Program-made: the position numbers and the translations under genes
Shown here: positions 8,782 to 15,513 of the stretch, piece after piece
Layout: the number at the start of each line of letters is the position of its first letter
Numbering within the stretch: the first letter of the stretch is position 1
The notes under the pieces: generated by a model
Told to the model about the DNA's origin: nothing
Databases searched by the model: none
The model's input: the letters and a program-made list of their open reading frames with translations, nothing else
Virus genome (UHGV): UHGV-1290461
DNA from: a virus
DNA length: 18,322 nt
Reading direction: 5' to 3' (one strand)

Positions 8782-9219
8782 TCATTTCAGGCATTGCGTC
8801 CTGATGTATTCCTGCAAGTAGTTAACCTGCGCGGTTATCCTGTCGATTCCACTTCGTAGACGGTAATAATTGAGTTCAGCATCTGCTGTAAGTCTTGGGC
8901 TTTCTCCATCGCCCATGCTGCTGGCTCCGGTCGTTGACTTTGCACAGGTGGCGGCGACTTGCAGGCGCTTACGACCAGCAGAAACATCAGCGCGGAGACT
9001 TTCGATAGTCGCGTTAGCATCAGCAAGCTCCTTTGTGTATCTGGCGTCAAGTTCTGCTACATCACGTTGACGCTTCTGCATGTCAGCGATGATGGATGCG
9101 GCTTTGTCGCGCTGCTCTTTGTAGGCGATGGCGTTATCACGGTAATGATTAACAGCCCATGACAGGCAAACGATGATGCAGATAACCAGAGCGGAGATAA
9201 TCGCGGTGACTCTGCTCAT
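8782..9219 (-). CDS. Rz: i-spanin Rz
   Basis: 145 aa. N-terminus [31 protein letters not shown] matches lambda Rz as recalled. Start overlaps the R stop (ATGA). Confidence 0.93.
8835..9020 (-). CDS. Rz1: o-spanin Rz1 (outer-membrane lipoprotein), embedded in Rz in the +1 frame
   Basis: Embedded ORF with signal-like [20 protein letters not shown] (lipobox VSAC) followed by a proline-rich segment ([13 protein letters not shown]), as in lambda Rz1. Start chosen at the internal ATG at 9020; exact start uncertain. Confidence 0.7.
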
Positions 9220-9692
9220 ACCTCAATCTCTCTGACCGTTCCGCCAGCTTCTTTGAATTTTGCAATCAGGCTGTCAGCCTTATGCTCGAACTGACCATAA
9301 CCAGCGCCCGGCAGTGAAGCCCAGATATTGCTGCAACGGTCGATTGCCTGACGGATATCACCGCGATCAATCATCGGCAAAGCGCCACGCTCTTTAATCT
9401 GTTGCAGTGCCACAGCGTCCTGGCTTTTCGGAGAGAAGTCTTTCAGGCCAAGCTGCTTACGATAGGCATCCCACCAACGGGAAAGAAGCTGGTAACGTCC
9501 GGCTGCTGTTGATTTGAGTTTTGGGTTTAGCGTAACAAGTTTGCGAGGGTGATCGGAGTAATCAGTGAATAGCTCTCCGCCAACAATGACGTCATAACCA
9601 TGATTTCTGGTTTTCTGCCGTCCGTTATCAGTTCCCTCTGACCACGCCAGCATATCGAGAAACGCCTTACGTTGATTATTGATTTCCACCAT
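9216..9692 (-). CDS. R: Endolysin R (lytic transglycosylase)
   Basis: 158 aa. [53 protein letters not shown]... is essentially the lambda R sequence as recalled. Overlaps S by 17 nt, as in lambda. Confidence 0.95.
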
Positions 9693-9999
9693 CTTCTACT
9701 CCGGCTTTTTTAGCAGCGAAGCGTTTGATAAGCGAACCAATCGAGTCAGTACCGATGTAGCCGATGAACACGCTCGTTATATAAGCGAGATTGCTACTTA
9801 GTCCTGCGAAGTCGAGAAGGTCACGAATGAACCAGGCGATAATGGCGCACATCGTTGCGTCGATTACTGTTTTTGTAAACGCACCGCCATTATATCTGCC
9901 GCGAAGGTACGCCATTGCAAACGCAAGGATTGCCCCGATGCCTTGTTCCTTTGCCGCGAGAATGGCGGCTAACAGGTCATGTTTTTCTGGCATCTTCAT
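9676..9999 (-). CDS. S: Holin/antiholin S (S107 from the ATG at 9999, S105 from the ATG at 9993)
   Basis: 107 aa beginning [43 protein letters not shown], the lambda S dual-start motif (Met1-Lys2-Met3) and sequence as recalled. Confidence 0.95.
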
Positions 10000-10241
10000 G
10001 TCTTACCCCCAATAAGGGGATTTGCTCTATTTAATTAGGAATAAGGTCGATTACTGATAGAACAAATCCAGGCTACTGTGTTTAGTAATCAGATTTGTTC
10101 GTGACCGATATGCACGGGCAAAACGGCAGGAGGTTGTTAGCGCAGCCTCTTGCCACCCGCTTTCACGAAGGTCATGTGTAGAAGGCCGCAGCGTAACTAT
10201 CACTGATGAATTCAGGATAGCCAGTGGCTACGGCTCAGTTA

Positions 10242-10317
10242 TGGTGCTGGTTAACGGACTTGAACCGCTACCCATTCGCTTACAAGGCGACCGCTCTACC
10301 ATTGGAGCTAAACCAGC
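10242..10317 (-). tRNA. tRNA-Thr (anticodon UGU), 76 nt with encoded CCA
   Basis: Hand-folded cloverleaf: acceptor GCUGGUU/AACCAGC (7 bp); D-arm GCUC/GAGC; anticodon loop CUUGUAA; T-arm AGCGG/CCGUU with loop UUCAAGU; discriminator A then CCA. Non-canonical points: G27-A43 mismatch and C at position 14. Confidence 0.65.
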
Positions 10318-10322
10318 ATGTT

Positions 10323-10397
10323 TGGCGGGACAGCGTGGACTCGAACCACGATAAGAAGGTTAACAGCCTTCCGTAATGACCTTTATACGACTGACCC
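10323..10397 (-). tRNA. tRNA-Asn-like (anticodon GUU), 75 nt with encoded CCA
   Basis: Hand-folded: acceptor GGGUCAG/CUGUCCC (one U-U mismatch); anticodon stem GAAGG/CCUUC with loop CUGUUAA (same loop as E. coli tRNA-Asn); T-arm CGUGG/CCACG with loop UUCGAGU; G73 then CCA. Weak D-stem and 4-nt variable loop. Confidence 0.55.
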
Positions 10398-10442
10398 AAA
10401 TAAAAAAGCCACCGTTGCAACTTAAGAGTCACTAACGGCAGC
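10398..10442 (-). terminator. Putative tR'-like intrinsic terminator between the late promoter and the tRNAs
   Basis: Minus RNA GCUGCCGUU...(17-nt loop)...AACGGUGGC forms a 9-bp stem including two G-U pairs, followed by UUUUUUAUUU. Lies about 45 nt downstream of the predicted late transcription start. Confidence 0.45.
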
Positions 10443-10446
10443 TTAC

Positions 10447-10482
10447 CTGCTAATTATGGCTAAATGACTAATTGCATGTCAA
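10447..10482 (-). promoter_or_regulatory. Putative late promoter pR' (-35 TTGACA, 18-bp spacer, -10 CATAAT), overlapping the 3' end of Q
   Basis: Consensus -35 TTGACA at 10482..10477 (inside the last Q codons) and -10 CATAAT at 10458..10453, immediately after the Q stop codon. Confidence 0.5.
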
Positions 10483-10978
10483 GGCTTTTAACAGCAACAT
10501 GCTTAACTTTCTCAACACGTTTACGCATTTTGAAAGCATTTTGCATTGGCTGGTACAAAACAAATAACGACGCTTTCAGGATGTCGTCAATTTCGTTTCT
10601 ACAGGTTGCCAGTGAAGGTTTTCTCCATCCCTCGCCACCACGTCCACACATCTTGCGTGGCTTTGCAGTCGCGTGATAGTAGGATGCAATTGCTCGCTTA
10701 GATGAACCATGAGCGTAGTAGCTGAGGAGGATGCCAAAGGCTTTCTTGTCAATGTACATGACGGAATCGACGACCTGAGAAATCAACATTCCATCATCAT
10801 CATTACACATTGGCCTTGTCATAATTCTTCCCGGCTCTACGCTCTCCATGAACTTCGCTATTACGCTGCTCATGCGCTTTTCCAGACGACCTGAATAAAC
10901 CCATGCGCCCCACAGTTCAAGCCAGCCATTCAGCCACTCGTGCTGCTCTTTGGTGAGGTTTAGTTCTCTTATGCTCAT
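10460..10978 (-). CDS. Q: Late-gene antiterminator Q, phage-82/QuuD-like family
   Basis: 172 aa. Motifs LELWGAWVYSG and TRPMCNDDDGMLISQVVD resemble the ERWGAW and RPxCxDDDxM motifs of the phage-82-type Q family. Sits between the nin region and the lysis genes. Confidence 0.75.
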   Translation of the reverse strand: MSIRELNLTKEQHEWLNGWLELWGAWVYSGRLEKRMSSVIAKFMESVEPGRIMTRPMCNDDDGMLISQVVDSVMYIDKKAFGILLSYYAHGSSKRAIASYYHATAKPRKMCGRGGEGWRKPSLATCRNEIDDILKASLFVLYQPMQNAFKMRKRVEKVKHVAVKSLDMQLVI

Positions 10979-11163
10979 CGTCTTCCCCTCTTGCCCTGTT
11001 TGACCATCAGGACGCCGTTAACTATTACGTGACGCTCGCCTTTGCTGTCTCGGTTGTACTTGAGCACTGTTCCTCTTGCGCAGGAAAGCATCCTCGCCAC
11101 TTCGGTCTGATTGCCTCGTGTCTGGATAAGAAGCTCTGGTATCGTTTGAATTGTGGCGTTCAT
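10975..11163 (-). CDS. ninH: NinH-like small DNA-binding protein
   Basis: 62 aa. TIPELLIQTRGNQTEVARMLSCARGTVLKY...IVNGVLMV fits the recalled NinH pattern (helix-turn-helix, Fis-like). Directly upstream of Q with an ATGA overlap. Confidence 0.6.
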   Translation of the reverse strand: MNATIQTIPELLIQTRGNQTEVARMLSCARGTVLKYNRDSKGERHVIVNGVLMVKQGKRGRR

Positions 11164-11522
11164 GCGTTCTCCAGTTCGGTGATTTTTATTCCAAGCCTTC
11201 CGCCTGGTACTTTCACGCCACGAATTACGCGAATGTCATCGAATTGCTCGTCGTCTTCCGCAAATCCGGCGTGGATAAGGGAGTCGAGTAAACCTTTCAG
11301 GATATTATCGAGGTCGCGACGGCGGGAGTCTGGAACGTCTGCGATGACTTTGATGCGGAGTCGTGATTTGGTGAAAATATCTAACTTGAGTTGGTGGATG
11401 ATTTGCTGAACGTCTTTTCGGTATTTCTGGCCTTTATCGCTGATGTAGTATTGGCTTCCCCGTCTTCGCCAGTAGGTATTCACCGACGGCGGGTATGGAA
11501 GCACAAACTGATATTCGTTCAT
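11160..11522 (-). CDS. rusA: Holliday junction resolvase RusA
   Basis: 120 aa. YPPSVNTYWRRRG, DVPDSRRRDLDNILKGLLDSL and GGRLGIKITEL match RusA (E. coli RusA is 120 aa and has the PDRRRRDLDN catalytic motif). Confidence 0.9.
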   Translation of the reverse strand: MNEYQFVLPYPPSVNTYWRRRGSQYYISDKGQKYRKDVQQIIHQLKLDIFTKSRLRIKVIADVPDSRRRDLDNILKGLLDSLIHAGFAEDDEQFDDIRVIRGVKVPGGRLGIKITELENA

Positions 11523-11797
11523 TGGACAAACACCCTCCCATTGTTAACCAATTTTTTAAGGGTAAGCACAATGGCCCGATCCATTTCAGCCCTTCGCTCT
11601 TCCCTGCTCATATCTCTCCCATTATCAATTCTTGAATGACAATCAACACATAGCGCAGCAGTAAGGCAATCATCTACTTTAATCCCAACCCCCTTCCCTT
11701 CATTTCTGTGAGCGGCCTGAACTCCGTATCTTCCGCAAAGAACGCAAAATTCAATATCCCTGACTGCCTGAAGCCATTTTTTGCTTCTAAACATCAA
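11519..11797 (-). CDS. YbcO-like (DUF1364) Cys-rich protein, putative metal-dependent nuclease
   Basis: 92 aa with Cys pairs FCVLCG ... CVDCHSR. Immediately upstream of rusA, as ybcO is in the DLP12 nin region. Start may be the second Met (11794). Confidence 0.5.
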   Translation of the reverse strand: MMFRSKKWLQAVRDIEFCVLCGRYGVQAAHRNEGKGVGIKVDDCLTAALCVDCHSRIDNGRDMSREERRAEMDRAIVLTLKKLVNNGRVFVQ

Positions 11798-12296
11798 TCC
11801 CCTCCAAAAAACGTCGGTACGCTGATTTGTTTTTTATGTTGCACACTGTCTGCGCACAAACACCAAATTCTTTGGCTATATCTCTGTATTTGCCTTTTGA
11901 TTTATATATTGATTTCACTTGTTCTGGCGTTAGTTTGCAGAAATGATGATTAAACCCATGAACAAGCAATCCGGAATCAAATCCATGTTTCGCATTTTCT
12001 GTTCGCGTTACCCACTCAAGATTTTCAACTTTATTATTAAGTTTATTTCCATCCTTGTGATTAACTTCCGGTTTGCCATCTGGGTTATCAATAAATACTT
12101 CTGCAACAATTCTGTGAACCATTTTATATGATGGTCTTTTCCCGCCACCTGGATACAGACCGACAAATGCATATCCTCCTGGTTTAATGCCATGAGATAA
12201 TTTTTTTGATTTACGGCATGAAATGATGTCTCCATTTTCAGTTACTTTATATATACCCTCAAAGCCGGGGATATCTTTTTCTTTAACATCACTCAT
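11787..12296 (-). CDS. HNH homing endonuclease (NUMOD4-like N-terminal motif plus HNH_3/AP2-type nuclease core, C-terminal helix-turn-helix-like tail)
   Basis: 169 aa. GFEGIYKVTENGDIIS (NUMOD4-like) and HRIVAEVFIDNPDGKPEVNHKDGNKLNNKVENLEWVTRTENAKH (HNH_3-like). The coding DNA is visibly AT-rich (about 36% GC by eye) against about 50% in the flanks. Confidence 0.8.
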   Translation of the reverse strand: MSDVKEKDIPGFEGIYKVTENGDIISCRKSKKLSHGIKPGGYAFVGLYPGGGKRPSYKMVHRIVAEVFIDNPDGKPEVNHKDGNKLNNKVENLEWVTRTENAKHGFDSGLLVHGFNHHFCKLTPEQVKSIYKSKGKYRDIAKEFGVCAQTVCNIKNKSAYRRFLEGIDV

Positions 12297-12465
12297 CGTC
12301 TTCTTCCTCGTACATTGAGCTATTCGGATCGCTCATCAGCTCTGCGCAGCAATCGGAGCACACGTGAACTTCCAGCACATGCAGCTTCTGACCGCAGTTA
12401 GCGCACGTTAAAGCTCGCTCGACGCTTTCTTTCTGGTATTGAATGGATTGGGATGGGCTAAGCAT
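12289..12465 (-). CDS. ninF: NinF
   Basis: 58 aa, hand-translated (below the ORF-track length cutoff): [58 protein letters not shown], matching lambda NinF as recalled. Stop overlaps the HNH start. Confidence 0.8.
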   Translation of the reverse strand: MLSPSQSIQYQKESVERALTCANCGQKLHVLEVHVCSDCCAELMSDPNSSMYEEEDDE

Positions 12466-12823
12466 TATTGGCGTCCTGCATCATGAGAAAGACAATCATG
12501 GCGGCGCGGAGTGGGTTTTCATCTTGAGTCATATGATATGGGGTACTATCACTGCCAACTTTTCTATGCGCTGCCTTCCATAATCCATTTTCTGGCGCTG
12601 GAATAATGCCAATTCTGTTCTCTACGATAATCGGCTCTGCGTCTGATGGGCTTTTACAGTAATCAACCGTTTTTATTGCATAACCAGTTTCGTCATCCCA
12701 CTCAACACCAACGATTGATGTTCCCAACTTTGCGATTTCGCAATCTTCGGGAGCAAATCCACAGCAAATTGCCACTCGCTTGTTAATTTCAAAATCACTT
12801 AACTGTGAATAATCCATTGTCAT
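12458..12823 (-). CDS. NinX-like protein (position between ninE and ninF as in P22)
   Basis: 121 aa from the internal ATG at 12823 ([23 protein letters not shown]...), which forms an ATGA overlap with the NinE stop. Assignment is positional plus weak recall. Confidence 0.45.
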
Positions 12824-12996
12824 TTCCTCGCACGATGTCTTAGCCACCGGATATCCCACAGGTGAGCCGTGTAATTGAAGGTTTTTACGTCAGATTCTTT
12901 TGGGATTGGCTTGCGTTTATTTCTGGAGCGTTTCGTTGGAAGGTATTTGCAGTTTTCGCAGATTATGTCGGTGATACTTCGTCGCTGTCGTCTCAT
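12820..12996 (-). CDS. ninE: NinE
   Basis: 58 aa from the internal [61 protein letters not shown], matching lambda NinE as recalled. ATGA overlap with the ninB stop. Confidence 0.75.
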
Positions 12997-13403
12997 TCGT
13001 ACCTCCTGTCGGTAAATCTGACACCCTGACCAATAGCCCATGCTGTCGTGTACTCAATCAGACTTGCCATACGCTTCACACTCATCTGCGCGCTACTTTC
13101 GCGAATGTTGACGTATTCGCCTTCAAGGCCGGGCAAAACATCAGCTTCCTGCTTTGTTGCCACTGCATGACCGCTGATCAACAAAACCTTCCATTGTTCC
13201 GGTTTTAACCATTTGCCGCACCATTGAACCTGACGTGCGATATCCGCCAGCATCGCGTGAAATTTTGCGTTCTGGTCAAGGTTGCGCTTGTAGTCAGTAA
13301 TGCGGATGGTGACTGGCTTGTCTTTATCGAGTGGTGTTGCGAGGATGGCATTTATTGCAGCTTGCTGTTGTTGCTTAGTTCGGAGGAAGATTGTTTGCTT
13401 CAT
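12993..13403 (-). CDS. ninB: NinB (Orf-family recombination mediator)
   Basis: 136 aa. Motif [31 protein letters not shown] parallels lambda NinB (LDQNRKLWACLGDVSRQVEWHGRWLDAESWK as recalled). Confidence 0.8.
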
Positions 13404-13405
13404 CG

Positions 13406-13690
13406 TTACTCCTTCACTTTGACTCCAGCAGCGCGGATGGCGCTCTGCACCTCGCTTACATACAGATATGGGGTTCGCCCACTATGCATGGTAAAGCTTT
13501 CAGGAAGCTCAATCTCGATAGCTGCTCGCGATGCCTGCCATAAAGCCCACCACTCATTTAAGGAGTGACGAATATCCATGCTTGAAAATGCGAAGTACCT
13601 ATCACCATTTCTTGCCTCGGTTATCATCTCGAATGGTAATCTCAATTTTTTGGCAACGTATTCCTCAAACTGCTTTCTTGATTCGCCCAT
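13406..13690 (-). CDS. Hypothetical 94 aa protein (Trp-rich central motif NEWWALWQASRAA)
   Basis: ORF-track ORF 13406..13714 starts at a GTG; the first ATG (13690) lies 1 nt after the stop of the upstream ORF, suggesting translational coupling. No family recognised. Confidence 0.45.
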   Translation of the reverse strand: MGESRKQFEEYVAKKLRLPFEMITEARNGDRYFAFSSMDIRHSLNEWWALWQASRAAIEIELPESFTMHSGRTPYLYVSEVQSAIRAAGVKVKE

Positions 13691-13691
13691 A

Positions 13692-13907
13692 TCAATCCCC
13701 GTTAGTCGTTTCACTCACGAATCTGACAAAACCAGCCATGTTAATTTGCATGAGTTTTTTCAACACTTTGTCTCGCCGGCTACGTTTTGGTTTTGGCCTG
13801 TGGTTGAATCTTTCACAAACTGGAAGGCTTGATGATTTCCAGTACCTATTACGCCTTGCTCCATCTTCCGCCATATCGGCATGAATAAGGTCTGCGAGTG
13901 TGCTCAT
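13692..13907 (-). CDS. Hypothetical 71 aa protein with highly basic core (NHRPKPKRSRRDKVLKKL)
   Basis: ATG at 13907 preceded by GGAGAGG. The ORF-track start at 13913 is a GTG. No family recognised. Confidence 0.4.
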   Translation of the reverse strand: MSTLADLIHADMAEDGARRNRYWKSSSLPVCERFNHRPKPKRSRRDKVLKKLMQINMAGFVRFVSETTNGD

Positions 13908-13921
13908 ATTCACCTCTCCAG

Positions 13922-14104
13922 TTACATTGGTTTTGTAATGTTGCTAGTCATCTTAAGAATAAAAAAATGCGTACGTAGCTTTGCTTCCCACATGTAAATC
14001 TCCTCAAGGCGAGATAAATCTACGAATACCGGACCTTTGTAATCTGGTCTTGATGCCCTTATGTATGAGCTAATAGTTTGTGCATCTTGCTCGTCAAGAT
14101 TCAT
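13922..14104 (-). CDS. Hypothetical 60 aa protein (AT-rich coding sequence)
   Basis: ATG at 14104 preceded by AGAGGGAAG. The coding DNA is visibly AT-rich. No family recognised. Confidence 0.45.
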   Translation of the reverse strand: MNLDEQDAQTISSYIRASRPDYKGPVFVDLSRLEEIYMWEAKLRTHFFILKMTSNITKPM

Positions 14105-14297
14105 GACTTCCCTCTCTAACAGATTTCAGGTTATTCCACTCCGTTACCGCACTGCGATAATTCGCGGCCGCCACAGCAGCGTGGTTAGCGCAGTAGATTT
14201 GGCACCCGTTCTCCATGTCGAATATTGTCGGTGATTTTCCGCATTTACATTTTTTGGCACGCGGTGCGTCTGAACACATTCCGTTAATGGTGTCCAT
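14094..14297 (-). CDS. Hypothetical 67 aa Cys-rich protein (possible zinc ribbon)
   Basis: ATG at 14297 preceded by GAGGGGG at 6 nt. Cys at residues 8, 17, 19, 32 and 36 (CKCGK ... CQIYCANH). 3' end overlaps the start of the next ORF by 11 nt. Confidence 0.45.
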   Translation of the reverse strand: MDTINGMCSDAPRAKKCKCGKSPTIFDMENGCQIYCANHAAVAAANYRSAVTEWNNLKSVREGSHES

Positions 14298-14320
14298 CAG
14301 AATCCCCCTCGTTCTTAATC

Positions 14321-14352
14321 CAATAAAAAAGGACTACTGTGTAAATAGCCCC
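14321..14352 (-). terminator. Putative tR2-like intrinsic terminator downstream of the Ren-like gene
   Basis: Minus RNA GGGGCUA-UUUACACAG-UAGUCC (6-bp stem with one G-U) followed by UUUUUUUAUU. Lambda tR2 occupies the same position, between ren and the nin genes. Confidence 0.45.
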
Positions 14353-14378
14353 TGTTATTAGCTCAGTGATGTAGATGG

Positions 14379-14669
14379 TCATTGCCTTACCTCCATAAGC
14401 GCCCTATTAATAAACGCCGTCATTGGATTTGCACATCCCCACCCCGTACCATCTGGATTTCTTTTAATTGGCTCCTTCTTCACTTTGCGTTTTGCATAAA
14501 TAACCGTCTTCCACTTACGCTCAACAACACTCAAATGTCCTTGTTTCACCATATGCCTTGCTGCTTGAGCGATTCTGTTATTTGGTATTCCGGTGATCAG
14601 TGCTAATTCATGTGGGGAGAATTGTTCATGAGTTTTCAGATATTCCAGGATGATTTCTTTTCCAGTCAC
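14379..14669 (-). CDS. ren: Ren-like protein
   Basis: 96 aa. N-terminus MTGKEIILEYLKTHEQFSPHELALITG resembles lambda Ren (MTGKEAIIHYLGTHNSF... as recalled). Same length and position (after the replication loader gene). Confidence 0.55.
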   Translation of the reverse strand: MTGKEIILEYLKTHEQFSPHELALITGIPNNRIAQAARHMVKQGHLSVVERKWKTVIYAKRKVKKEPIKRNPDGTGWGCANPMTAFINRALMEVRQ

Positions 14670-15511
14670 GATCTGCTCCTGTAACTATCCCATGTAAACG
14701 CAAGAGTGCACCCGCCGCCATCATTCATCCTGTCAATAACACGCTCACCAATGAATGCAGACAGTTCATCTTTGCTCTGGTTGCTAATCAGGATTGTTGG
14801 CTTCATGCGCTCGTAGCGGGTGTTGATGATTTCGAACATGATCATCTTTTCCGCCTCGCTTCCAAACTGCACACCAACCTCATCGATAATTAGCAGGTCA
14901 GGTTTAGTGAACTGTCGGATCACTTCATCCTCTGTGCGGGTGGAGTTTTTCGACCATGTTGATTTATATTCTCTGGCAATTTTCAGCGCCGTTGTGAAAA
15001 TAGCTGAGCTTTGATGTTCCGTAATTGCGTGCCGGGCGATAGCCAGTGCAAGATGATTCTTTCCAGTACCAGGCTTTCCACACATAACCAGCCCACCGCC
15101 TTTCTGTAACCTCTCAGGCCATTTGTTGGCGTATGCCTGACACACCCTGAGCACTCTCTTTGCATCGTCGTTGATTGGCTCGTAGTTCTGTAGTGTGCAA
15201 CCCTTGAATCGTTCAGGAATATCAAGATTATTCAACAGAAACTCGACATTGCGCTTACGTGATTCTTCGTCGATTTTAATCTTCTCTGCCTGTAGCCGAA
15301 TAAGCTCATCTCTCAAGCATTCAGGGCATTCGCTAGGTCTTGAGGCAAACTTAATTGGCCCAGTCGAGTAACGGTTACGCTGCTCAAACTCACCATGTTT
15401 TTCACAGATGCCAGTGCCAATTTCTACAGCTGTATGCTCGATAGCAATTGGCGGAGAACTCAATTCTGCAAGTTTTTTCTCCAGTTGGGAGATCTTTTCA
15501 TCCAGCGTCAT
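14666..15511 (-). CDS. Replication helicase loader, DnaC-like AAA+ ATPase (functional analogue of lambda P)
   Basis: Walker A GKPGTGKNHLA and Walker B LLIIDEVG. Start placed at the ATG at 15511 (MTLDEK...), which has AGGAG 5 nt upstream and overlaps the O stop; the ORF-track start is 15529. ATGA overlap with ren at the 3' end. Confidence 0.85.
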   Translation of the reverse strand: MTLDEKISQLEKKLAELSSPPIAIEHTAVEIGTGICEKHGEFEQRNRYSTGPIKFASRPSECPECLRDELIRLQAEKIKIDEESRKRNVEFLLNNLDIPERFKGCTLQNYEPINDDAKRVLRVCQAYANKWPERLQKGGGLVMCGKPGTGKNHLALAIARHAITEHQSSAIFTTALKIAREYKSTWSKNSTRTEDEVIRQFTKPDLLIIDEVGVQFGSEAEKMIMFEIINTRYERMKPTILISNQSKDELSAFIGERVIDRMNDGGGCTLAFTWDSYRSRS

Positions 15512-15513
15512 GT

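Follow-up and report, generated by a model that had tools for sequence, protein, structure and literature searches.

Phage tRNAs that replace host tRNAs destroyed by defensive nucleases have been described for the Old nuclease of phage P2, the effector of classic P2-lambda interference, which amputates the anticodon arm of the host tRNA-Thr(UGU) (Govande et al., Nucleic Acids Research 2025, PMC12445682). Old cuts this tRNA, the product of thrU and the sole reader of ACA in E. coli, after C28 and C40 within a paired CNG motif. In a library of 245 coliphage tRNAs the same authors found eight rescuers, all of them Thr(UGU); rescue needs the UGU anticodon, the phage tRNA standing in for the host tRNA without shielding it, and resistance arises only when the CNG motif is altered and the anticodon stem is shortened as well. 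The tRNA-Thr of phage 21 (Thr21) protects against Old in this way: besides C28U/G42A it has an anticodon stem of reduced length, and in vitro Old hardly cuts it at Site 1 (PMC12445682). Here we analyze a pair of tRNA genes, for Thr(UGU) and Asn(GUU), in the late region of the virus genome UHGV-1290461, using the whole available stretch of 18,322 nucleotides, hereafter the window. We consider it likely that they form a late-expressed decoding pair, in which the Thr member is an Old-resistant substitute for thrU, as has been shown for an allele differing by one base, and the Asn member most likely serves likewise.

Two further studies bear on this pair. The AriB nuclease of the PARIS system cleaves the host tRNAs Lys(UUU) and Thr(UGU), and less efficiently Asn(GUU), at 40|41, with U39, A41 and U16 as determinants, and phage T5 requires resistant forms of all three tRNAs, Lys, Thr and Asn, against PARIS (Belukhina et al. 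2025, PMC12409363). The tRNA-Thr(UGU) of phage HK446 has been reported as a strong anti-Old counter-defence for HK97, HK542 and Bas34 (bioRxiv 10.64898/2026.07.10.737580).

The pair itself is already known, being the Asn-Thr cassette of phages 21 and Sf6, annotated since the publication of those sequences. The phage 21 genome record lists the late transcription start, tR' (PMID 1704887), tRNA-Asn and tRNA-Thr in the order seen in the window, and in the Sf6 record, which also marks pR', qut and tR', both genes bear the label 'similar to phage 21'. The record of HK446 (NC_019714.1) lacks an annotation of the genes, and ARAGORN calls both there; its tRNA-Asn(GUU), at 614-688 of the corresponding locus (L134), is identical to that of the window and lies directly upstream of its tRNA-Thr(UGU). 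All 75 nucleotides of the window tRNA-Asn are the same in phage 21, Sf6 and HK446, and the tRNA-Thr ('tRNA-Thr21') agrees at 75 of 76, the sole difference being nucleotide 26 (G in the window, A in the others). With phage 21 the window further shares the inter-tRNA spacer, the slot right after the U-tract of tR' and ahead of the lysis genes, and an identical tR' hairpin, its U-tract being shorter by one T in a three-way alignment. The flanking proteins differ: the Q protein and its binding element are of the Sf6 type, unlike those of phage 21, and the downstream genes are lambda-type S, R and Rz, where phage 21 has a pinholin and a signal-arrest-release (SAR) endolysin. The pair is also annotated in SfI, BTP1, SPN9CC and many prophages; tRNA genes in this place have been described in the SfI and phage L papers, and the BTP1 transcriptomics paper mentions the two tRNA genes. 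The 181-bp tRNA region matches 369 of 5,426 complete E. coli genomes (about 7%), in which PGAP labels tRNA-Thr and tRNA-Asn, and is found with at least 80% query coverage in 59 phage records.

ARAGORN yields exactly two tRNAs in the window, tRNA-Thr(tgt) and tRNA-Asn(gtt), both on the minus strand and both with CCA visible in the gene sequence. Rfam RF00005, whose gathering score is 29 bits, matches them at 61.2 and 55.3 bits, respectively. The original prediction of two such genes between the late terminator and the holin, made from the letters and open reading frames, thus holds in identity and in place (on the minus strand tR' ends at 10398 and S starts at 9999), and both programs recover the genes. 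Their scores are lower than those of the host counterparts and lie within the range of genuine tRNAs, given that E. coli thrT, thrU, asnT, glyT and tyrU score 74.6, 73.8, 72.6, 64.9 and 53.4 bits on the same model. Rfam alignment with per-position segmentation recovers every irregularity that had been listed: the G27·A43 mismatch and a C at the normally invariant A14 in tRNA-Thr, and U4·U69 in tRNA-Asn together with a D-stem of three Watson-Crick pairs plus U13·U22. That D-stem, earlier described as weak, is no anomaly, an identical D-arm (U8-C9 / GUAU..UUAC, with U13·U22) being present in E. coli glyT, which also has a 4-nt variable loop. The tertiary core (U8, A14, G18-G19, U33, U54-U55-C56 and A58) is complete in tRNA-Asn and, save for C14, in tRNA-Thr; the T5 tRNA-Thr likewise deviates at 8-14. 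The identity rules for the threonyl- and asparaginyl-tRNA synthetases (ThrRS and AsnRS) come from established E. coli identity studies, and the corresponding elements are intact in both genes (G1-C72, C2-G71, G35 and U36 in tRNA-Thr; G34-U35-U36 and G73 in tRNA-Asn). As judged from these structures, both genes are real tRNAs with the identity elements for their predicted amino acids in place. Single-sequence minimum-free-energy folding gave no cloverleaf for tRNA-Thr and is uninformative here, because it gave none for host thrU or asnT either. A permissive Rfam search of 9950-10520 found no RNA beyond the two tRNAs, and no third tRNA in the 242-nt gap ahead of the holin gene.

The features of tRNA-Thr that bear on Old lie in its anticodon stem. 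The CNG region (28-30/40-42) reads CUG/CAG in host thrU and UCG/CGA in the window tRNA-Thr and in all 19 variants of its clade, and the A27-U43 and C28-G42 pairs of thrU are represented by G27·A43 and U28-A42. The window tRNA-Thr thereby displays both of the features associated with Old resistance: an altered CNG motif and an anticodon stem that lacks its terminal pair. We propose that it would act as a nuclease-resistant stand-in for host thrU, the primary target of Old and a prime target of AriB, with resistance arising from the replacement of C28-G42 by U28-A42 and from the loss of the 27-43 pair to G·A, which would shorten the anticodon stem. The apparent irregularity G27·A43 would then be the adaptation itself, keeping ACA decoding going under attack. 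For the allele that differs by one base, G27·A43 is an experimentally supported adaptation. Of the three explanations first offered for the non-canonical pairs—phage-specific adaptation, decay, or roles other than decoding—the evidence favors the first.

Other Old-resistant coliphage tRNAs for Thr(UGU) are 'Thr6' and those of T4, Bas32 and Bas33 (PMC12445682 and the 2026 preprint). Thr6 loses its anticodon-stem pair via U43A where the window tRNA-Thr has G27·A43, and changes G30-C40 to C-G where the latter changes C28-G42 to U-A. A further contrast is the D-loop of the window tRNA-Thr, which is non-canonical (C14 A15 A16) and compensated by an A15-U48 Levitt pair. The genomic settings differ too: the former tRNAs belong to the large tRNA arrays of virulent phages, whereas the window gene sits in a temperate lambdoid/P22-like phage with two tRNAs.

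To compare the wider family we used a sample of 120 viral contigs fetched with an Asn-based pattern that fixed positions 30, 31, 39 and 40 of tRNA-Asn and left the Thr genes unconstrained, so that the conservation of those four Asn positions within the sample carries no information. The G26 of the window tRNA-Thr (position 10292 on the minus strand) is the minority allele in this sample, occurring in about one quarter of the Thr copies, and turns a potential A26-U44 pair beside G27·A43 into G·U.

The same irregular pairs could be read in the opposite sense, namely that the two genes are decaying or hitch-hiking pseudo-tRNAs carried along with the Q-lysis module, whose mismatches mark lost function. 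Covariation bears on this. Pairs were counted on the cloverleaf across 20 distinct Thr and 19 distinct Asn variants: 94.8% of the cells are paired in the Thr set, falling to 22-47% when the 3' partners are slid, and 90.0% in the Asn set, with the slid controls of the two sets together spanning 22-54%. Two-sided changes occur at five pairs in Thr (3-70, 5-68, 6-67, 49-65 and 51-63) and, in canonical numbering, at six in Asn (5-68, 6-67, 7-66, 28-42, 29-41 and 4-69, the last being one G·U and one U·G variant); in neither set did any of 500 shuffles reach the observed covariation score. The Thr 15-48 Levitt pair has likewise covaried, from G-C to A-U. Against this background of compensated drift the mismatches stay put: Thr 27·43 is non-standard in 20 of 20 variants, Asn 13·22 in 19 of 19 and Asn 4·69 in 17 of 19, with U4·U69 retained over three acceptor-stem haplotypes, and Thr position 14 is C in 16 of the 20 clade variants, U in three, G in one and A in none. 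On this alignment U4·U69 of tRNA-Asn and C14 of tRNA-Thr are conserved features. The Rfam scores 12-17 bits below those of host thrU and asnT, the replacement of the near-universal A14 by C, a same-slot relative in phages L and ST64T that is a tRNA-like gene with a 4-nt anticodon loop, and a chimera with host thrU on one contig (L124) might all be cited in favor of pseudo-tRNAs. However, the identity elements and CCA are intact, a Thr allele one base away is biologically active in two independent studies, and non-canonical pairs are also found in host thrU (an A52·C62 mismatch), in glyT and in the experimentally active T5 tRNAs for Lys, Thr and Asn, all of which have anticodon-stem mismatches, including G27·A43 in T5 tRNA-Asn. 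Since the irregular pairs are fixed while neighboring stems change in compensation, we reject decay, which we regard as scarcely tenable.

The comparison with AriB extends to both members of the pair. At the three determinant positions the window tRNA-Thr has G39, G41 and A16 and the tRNA-Asn C39, U41 and A16, where the host tRNAs have U39, U16 and either A41 (thrU) or C41 (asnT). The Thr member is probably AriB-resistant, as far as these positions allow a prediction. The T5 set of Lys, Thr and Asn tRNAs (Burman 2024; Belukhina 2025) is the closest parallel: the window has two of the same three anticodons, both of its genes have lost U39 and U16 and changed position 41, and the anticodon arm of T5 tRNA-Thr, CCUUGUAAGC, is that of the window tRNA-Thr, the 27-43 pair being mismatched in T5 tRNA-Asn and tRNA-Lys as well. 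Overall, though, the window tRNAs are only 57-59% identical to those of T5. No tRNA-Lys(UUU) was found by ARAGORN in the window, nor does one occur in the Sf6-type arrays of the 120 viral contigs.

As to the Asn partner, the SfI authors described the significance of tRNA-Asn as 'not clear', and the Old preprint, which refers to a 'single' tRNA in HK446, overlooked the Asn gene (10.64898/2026.07.10.737580). Host tRNA-Asn(GUU) is also a substrate of Old, which cuts it more slowly. The paired CNG motif of host asnT, CGG/CCG, corresponds to AAG/CUU in the window gene. Lacking U39, U16 and the paired CNG motif, the window tRNA-Asn(GUU) would most likely play the same stand-in role for host tRNA-Asn, a secondary target of the two Toprim nucleases Old and AriB. 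An Asn-then-Thr pairing recurs in unrelated phages, namely P1, N4, Klebsiella phages and Flyfo; their Thr genes are related (78-82% identity), whereas their Asn lineages are not, being 55-57% identical and no nearer than to host asnT. Recurrence of the pairing despite unrelated Asn lineages speaks for the two anticodons being functionally linked. A more ambitious proposal, which we advance only tentatively and with more doubt than confidence, is that the cassette would be a two-part module against Toprim nucleases, in which tRNA-Asn is cleavage-resistant, U4·U69 and the non-A14 base are evasion features, and the Asn/Thr pairing, which would have arisen repeatedly and independently in Sf6-like, P1, N4 and Klebsiella phages, reflects joint targeting of both tRNAs by defence nucleases of a widespread class.

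Several points weigh against assigning the pair a counter-nuclease role. At identities of 64% to thrU and 58% to asnT, differences at three of three AriB determinants are only mildly improbable, with chances of about 0.05 for Thr and 0.07 for Asn. As Lys(UUU), the main target of AriB, is not represented in the window, Thr and Asn alone could not defeat the B185 PARIS. The conservation of C39 in the viral-contig Asn set is forced by the search pattern. In Asn variants of the Klebsiella type a paired CNG motif is restored (CAG/CUG), and P1 tRNA-Asn keeps the AriB motif UAAUCA, so loss of the motifs is not universal. With regard to tRNA-Thr, a single Thr(UGU) failed to rescue lambda, or Old toxicity in recB cells, and the escape of HK446 from Old is credited to the protein Oad2, the authors of the preprint suggesting that the tRNA may serve another purpose (10.64898/2026.07.10.737580). 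Moreover, the published alleles of phage 21 and HK446 carry A26 and that of the window G26, and the expression of the cassette from the late transcript is something we infer.

Another explanation is pure codon supplementation, in which the tRNAs raise the supply for codons preferred by the phage, thereby accelerating late protein synthesis, and the irregular pairs are neutral quirks. Set against 14,748 codons sampled from E. coli K-12 genes, the codon comparison proposed alongside the original prediction came out in favor of this for Thr and against it for Asn. ACA occurs at 15.1 per thousand in the late genes (27% of Thr codons) and 18.1 in the early genes (37%), as against 5.4 in the host sample (10%), an approximately threefold enrichment for a codon with thrU as its sole host reader (PMC12445682); the SfI paper reports the same bias (17.3% versus 7.1%). 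For Asn codons there is no such excess (36.6 per thousand among late genes versus 37.7 in the host sample), although in the phage L paper 24 of the 25 Asn codons of the coat gene are AAC. Furthermore, codons enriched equally or more have no matching tRNA in the cassette: AGA is enriched 3.9-fold in the late and 16-fold in the early genes, and AGG and AAG are enriched too. The excess of AGA and AGG with no Arg(UCU) tRNA in the window counts against a simple codon-demand rule. In the early genes (10460-16700 on the minus strand) AGA and AGG stand at 19.1 and 11.6 per thousand, compared with 1.2 and 0.7 in the host sample. Codon supply also fails to explain why G27·A43 and U28-A42 are invariant over 20 variants amid compensated drift elsewhere, or why the invariant features are exactly those that confer Old resistance. 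As the entire explanation we thus hold it to be unlikely; the two roles are not mutually exclusive, because high ACA use worsens the loss of thrU.

Functions that bypass decoding altogether, such as a nuclease decoy or competitor, a 5'-terminal processing or stability element of the late mRNA, or a target for recombination or attachment, appear very improbable. In favor of such roles, a processing or stabilizing element would be well placed at the very start of the late transcript, the AriB paper considers that viral tRNAs in general might compete (PMC12409363), and the L124 chimera is evidence that recombination between the Thr gene and host thrU can occur. On the other hand, phage tRNA-Thr did not slow the depletion of host thrU by Old, and changing its anticodon abolished rescue (PMC12445682; 10.64898/2026.07.10.737580). 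The dependence of rescue on the UGU anticodon, with the phage tRNA replacing that of the host (PMC12445682), contradicts the suggestion of roles other than decoding. CUS-3 and HK75 share Q, tR' and the lysis genes but lack the tRNAs, which are hence dispensable for late-operon expression, and P22-like phages integrate via a separate phage attachment site (attP).

Colicin E5 and HepS-type anticodon-loop nucleases were also considered as the selective agent behind the sequence changes and rejected, because the anticodon loops of the phage tRNAs are those of the host (CUUGUAA and CUGUUAA).

The pair, with its putatively Old-resistant Thr member, is embedded in the late region (Table 1). The window is of the P22-like/lambdoid (Lederbergvirus) type, its nearest records being the E. 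coli phages vB_EcoP-720R6, HK75 and CUS-3 and the Shigella phage Sf6, and the order along the minus strand is Q, pR', tR', tRNA-Asn, spacer, tRNA-Thr, a conserved 242-nt segment, S, R and Rz, followed by the terminase and head genes. The spacer of pR' contains Sf6-type Q-binding repeats (ATTAGTCA/TTTAGCCA), and the promoter occupies the position of the annotated P R' of Sf6 and of pR' and the Q-binding element of phage 21. The tR' hairpin folds at -20.2 kcal/mol (z = -4.26), with none of 200 shuffles equally stable, and its U-tract directly abuts tRNA-Asn, which starts at the next base. The built-in terminator scan reported no terminator, because the long composite hairpin of tR' exceeds the 3-8 nt loop limit of the tool; direct folding did recover it. 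The proposed Q-dependent readthrough would be the obvious route of expression, a view supported by the position of the genes and by the experimentally mapped late leader of the same sequence in phage 21. Both tRNAs would be transcribed only once Q-modified RNA polymerase passes tR', and RNase P and 3' trimming would then cut them out of that transcript, at whose 5' end they lie, with CCA already encoded.

Table 1. Features of the late region around the tRNA pair, listed in the order of transcription
Feature	Position	Strand	Description
Late antiterminator Q (phage-21/Sf6 type)	10460..10978	-	172 aa; phrog_943 'anti-termination protein Q-like', E 4e-93; Sf6 gp59 homologue
Late promoter pR'	10453..10482	-	TTGACA at 10482, 18-nt spacer, CATAAT to 10453; 11/12 consensus matches (promoter scan)
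tR' late-leader terminator	10398..10444	-	hairpin 10444-10406 plus U-tract to 10398
tRNA-Asn(GUU)	10323..10397	-	75 nt, ARAGORN; Rfam RF00005 55.3 bits; encoded CCA, G73, U4·U69, U13·U22, variable loop 4 nt
Inter-tRNA spacer	10318..10322	-	5 nt, AACAU
tRNA-Thr(UGU)	10242..10317	-	76 nt, ARAGORN; Rfam RF00005 61.2 bits; encoded CCA, A73, G1-C72, C2-G71, G27·A43, U28-A42, C14/A15/A16, U48
Pre-holin segment (CUS-3 'bsq3')	10000..10241	-	242 nt, conserved; no Rfam match
Holin/antiholin S	9676..9999	-	phrog_126, E 1e-40; first late protein gene downstream
Endolysin R	9216..9692	-	phrog_90, E 2e-63
Spanin Rz	8782..9219	-	phrog_13, E 1e-72

The likening of this arrangement to that of the Shiga toxin (Stx) phages was borne out for the position and not for the tRNAs themselves. 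The ileZ-argN-argO genes of the 933W-type phages, which lie downstream of pR' and ahead of the lysis genes and stx in these lambdoid phages, are rare-codon Ile and Arg types, unlike the Thr and Asn tRNAs of the window. The tR' segment is common to the Stx phages and the window, and outside it their sequences are not similar.

Comparison of related late regions shows how the cassette behaves as a unit. CUS-3 has pR', tR' down to the U-tract and the 242-nt segment in common with the window, and in it an unrelated sequence of about 295 bp (locus L003, ~2242-2535) replaces exactly the two tRNAs between the U-tract and the pre-holin segment. In HK446 a lambda-type Q, pR' and long leader are found, yet the cassette starts right after the same TTTTTTATTT tract. 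The cassette is thus a separate unit with sharp boundaries, placed immediately behind the U-tract of tR', whether Q/tR' is of the 21 type or the lambda type. The 242-nt segment is near-identical in CUS-3 and HK446, that is, with or without the tRNAs; within it lies a 50-aa open reading frame with a GTG start (10051-10203 on the minus strand), which matches phrog_22751, a family of unknown function (E 3e-28).

The gene content of the module varies. Among the 120 viral contigs, 94 have Asn-Thr, seven Asn-Gly(UCC) and six Asn alone, and a few have Asn-Phe-Thr with or without Arg(UCU) and Gly. The Sf6-type tRNA-Asn anchors these variable arrays (L007, 901-1220; L008, 918-1155; and IMG/VR contigs such as L104, L105 and L079), which take the form Asn-Phe(GAA)-Thr, in some cases accompanied by Arg(UCU) and Gly(UCC), or Asn-Gly(UCC), the phage Gly copies retaining the host CNG motif. 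Gly(UCC) is, along with Thr(UGU), among the preferred targets of Old (bioRxiv 10.64898/2026.07.10.737580).

Two unusual loci complete the picture of the slot. In Salmonella phage L (locus L006, 794-865), and likewise in ST64T-type phages, the second gene of the cassette is annotated as tRNA-Leu(UAA). Its tRNA score is 42.1 bits and its acceptor and T-arm are of the Thr type, but the anticodon arm is a 5-bp CCUUC/GAAGG stem with a loop of only 4 nt, and ARAGORN makes no call. As drawn, this RNA could not decode, and it may be a pseudogene or else a tRNA-like RNA serving some other role. The IMG/VR contig L124 (1359-1512) has, in a late region of the phage-21 type, a chimeric tRNA-Thr with nucleotides 1-25 of the phage type and 26-76 those of host thrU, and thus with the anticodon arm of the host, which is nuclease-sensitive; 3 nt downstream is a gene nearly identical to host glyT, and the locus looks like the product of recombination of the cassette with host tRNA genes.

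With the purpose of the Thr gene, including G27·A43, having been explained experimentally in 2025-26, what this locus adds is a concrete and cheaply approached hypothesis on its Asn partner. If tRNA-Asn21 resists Old or AriB, then two-tRNA cassettes of temperate phages would be dedicated counter-defence modules. Were this so, the outcomes of prophage induction and superinfection would be affected wherever P2-like prophages or PARIS-bearing satellites occur, the pair being present in about 7% of complete E. coli genomes.

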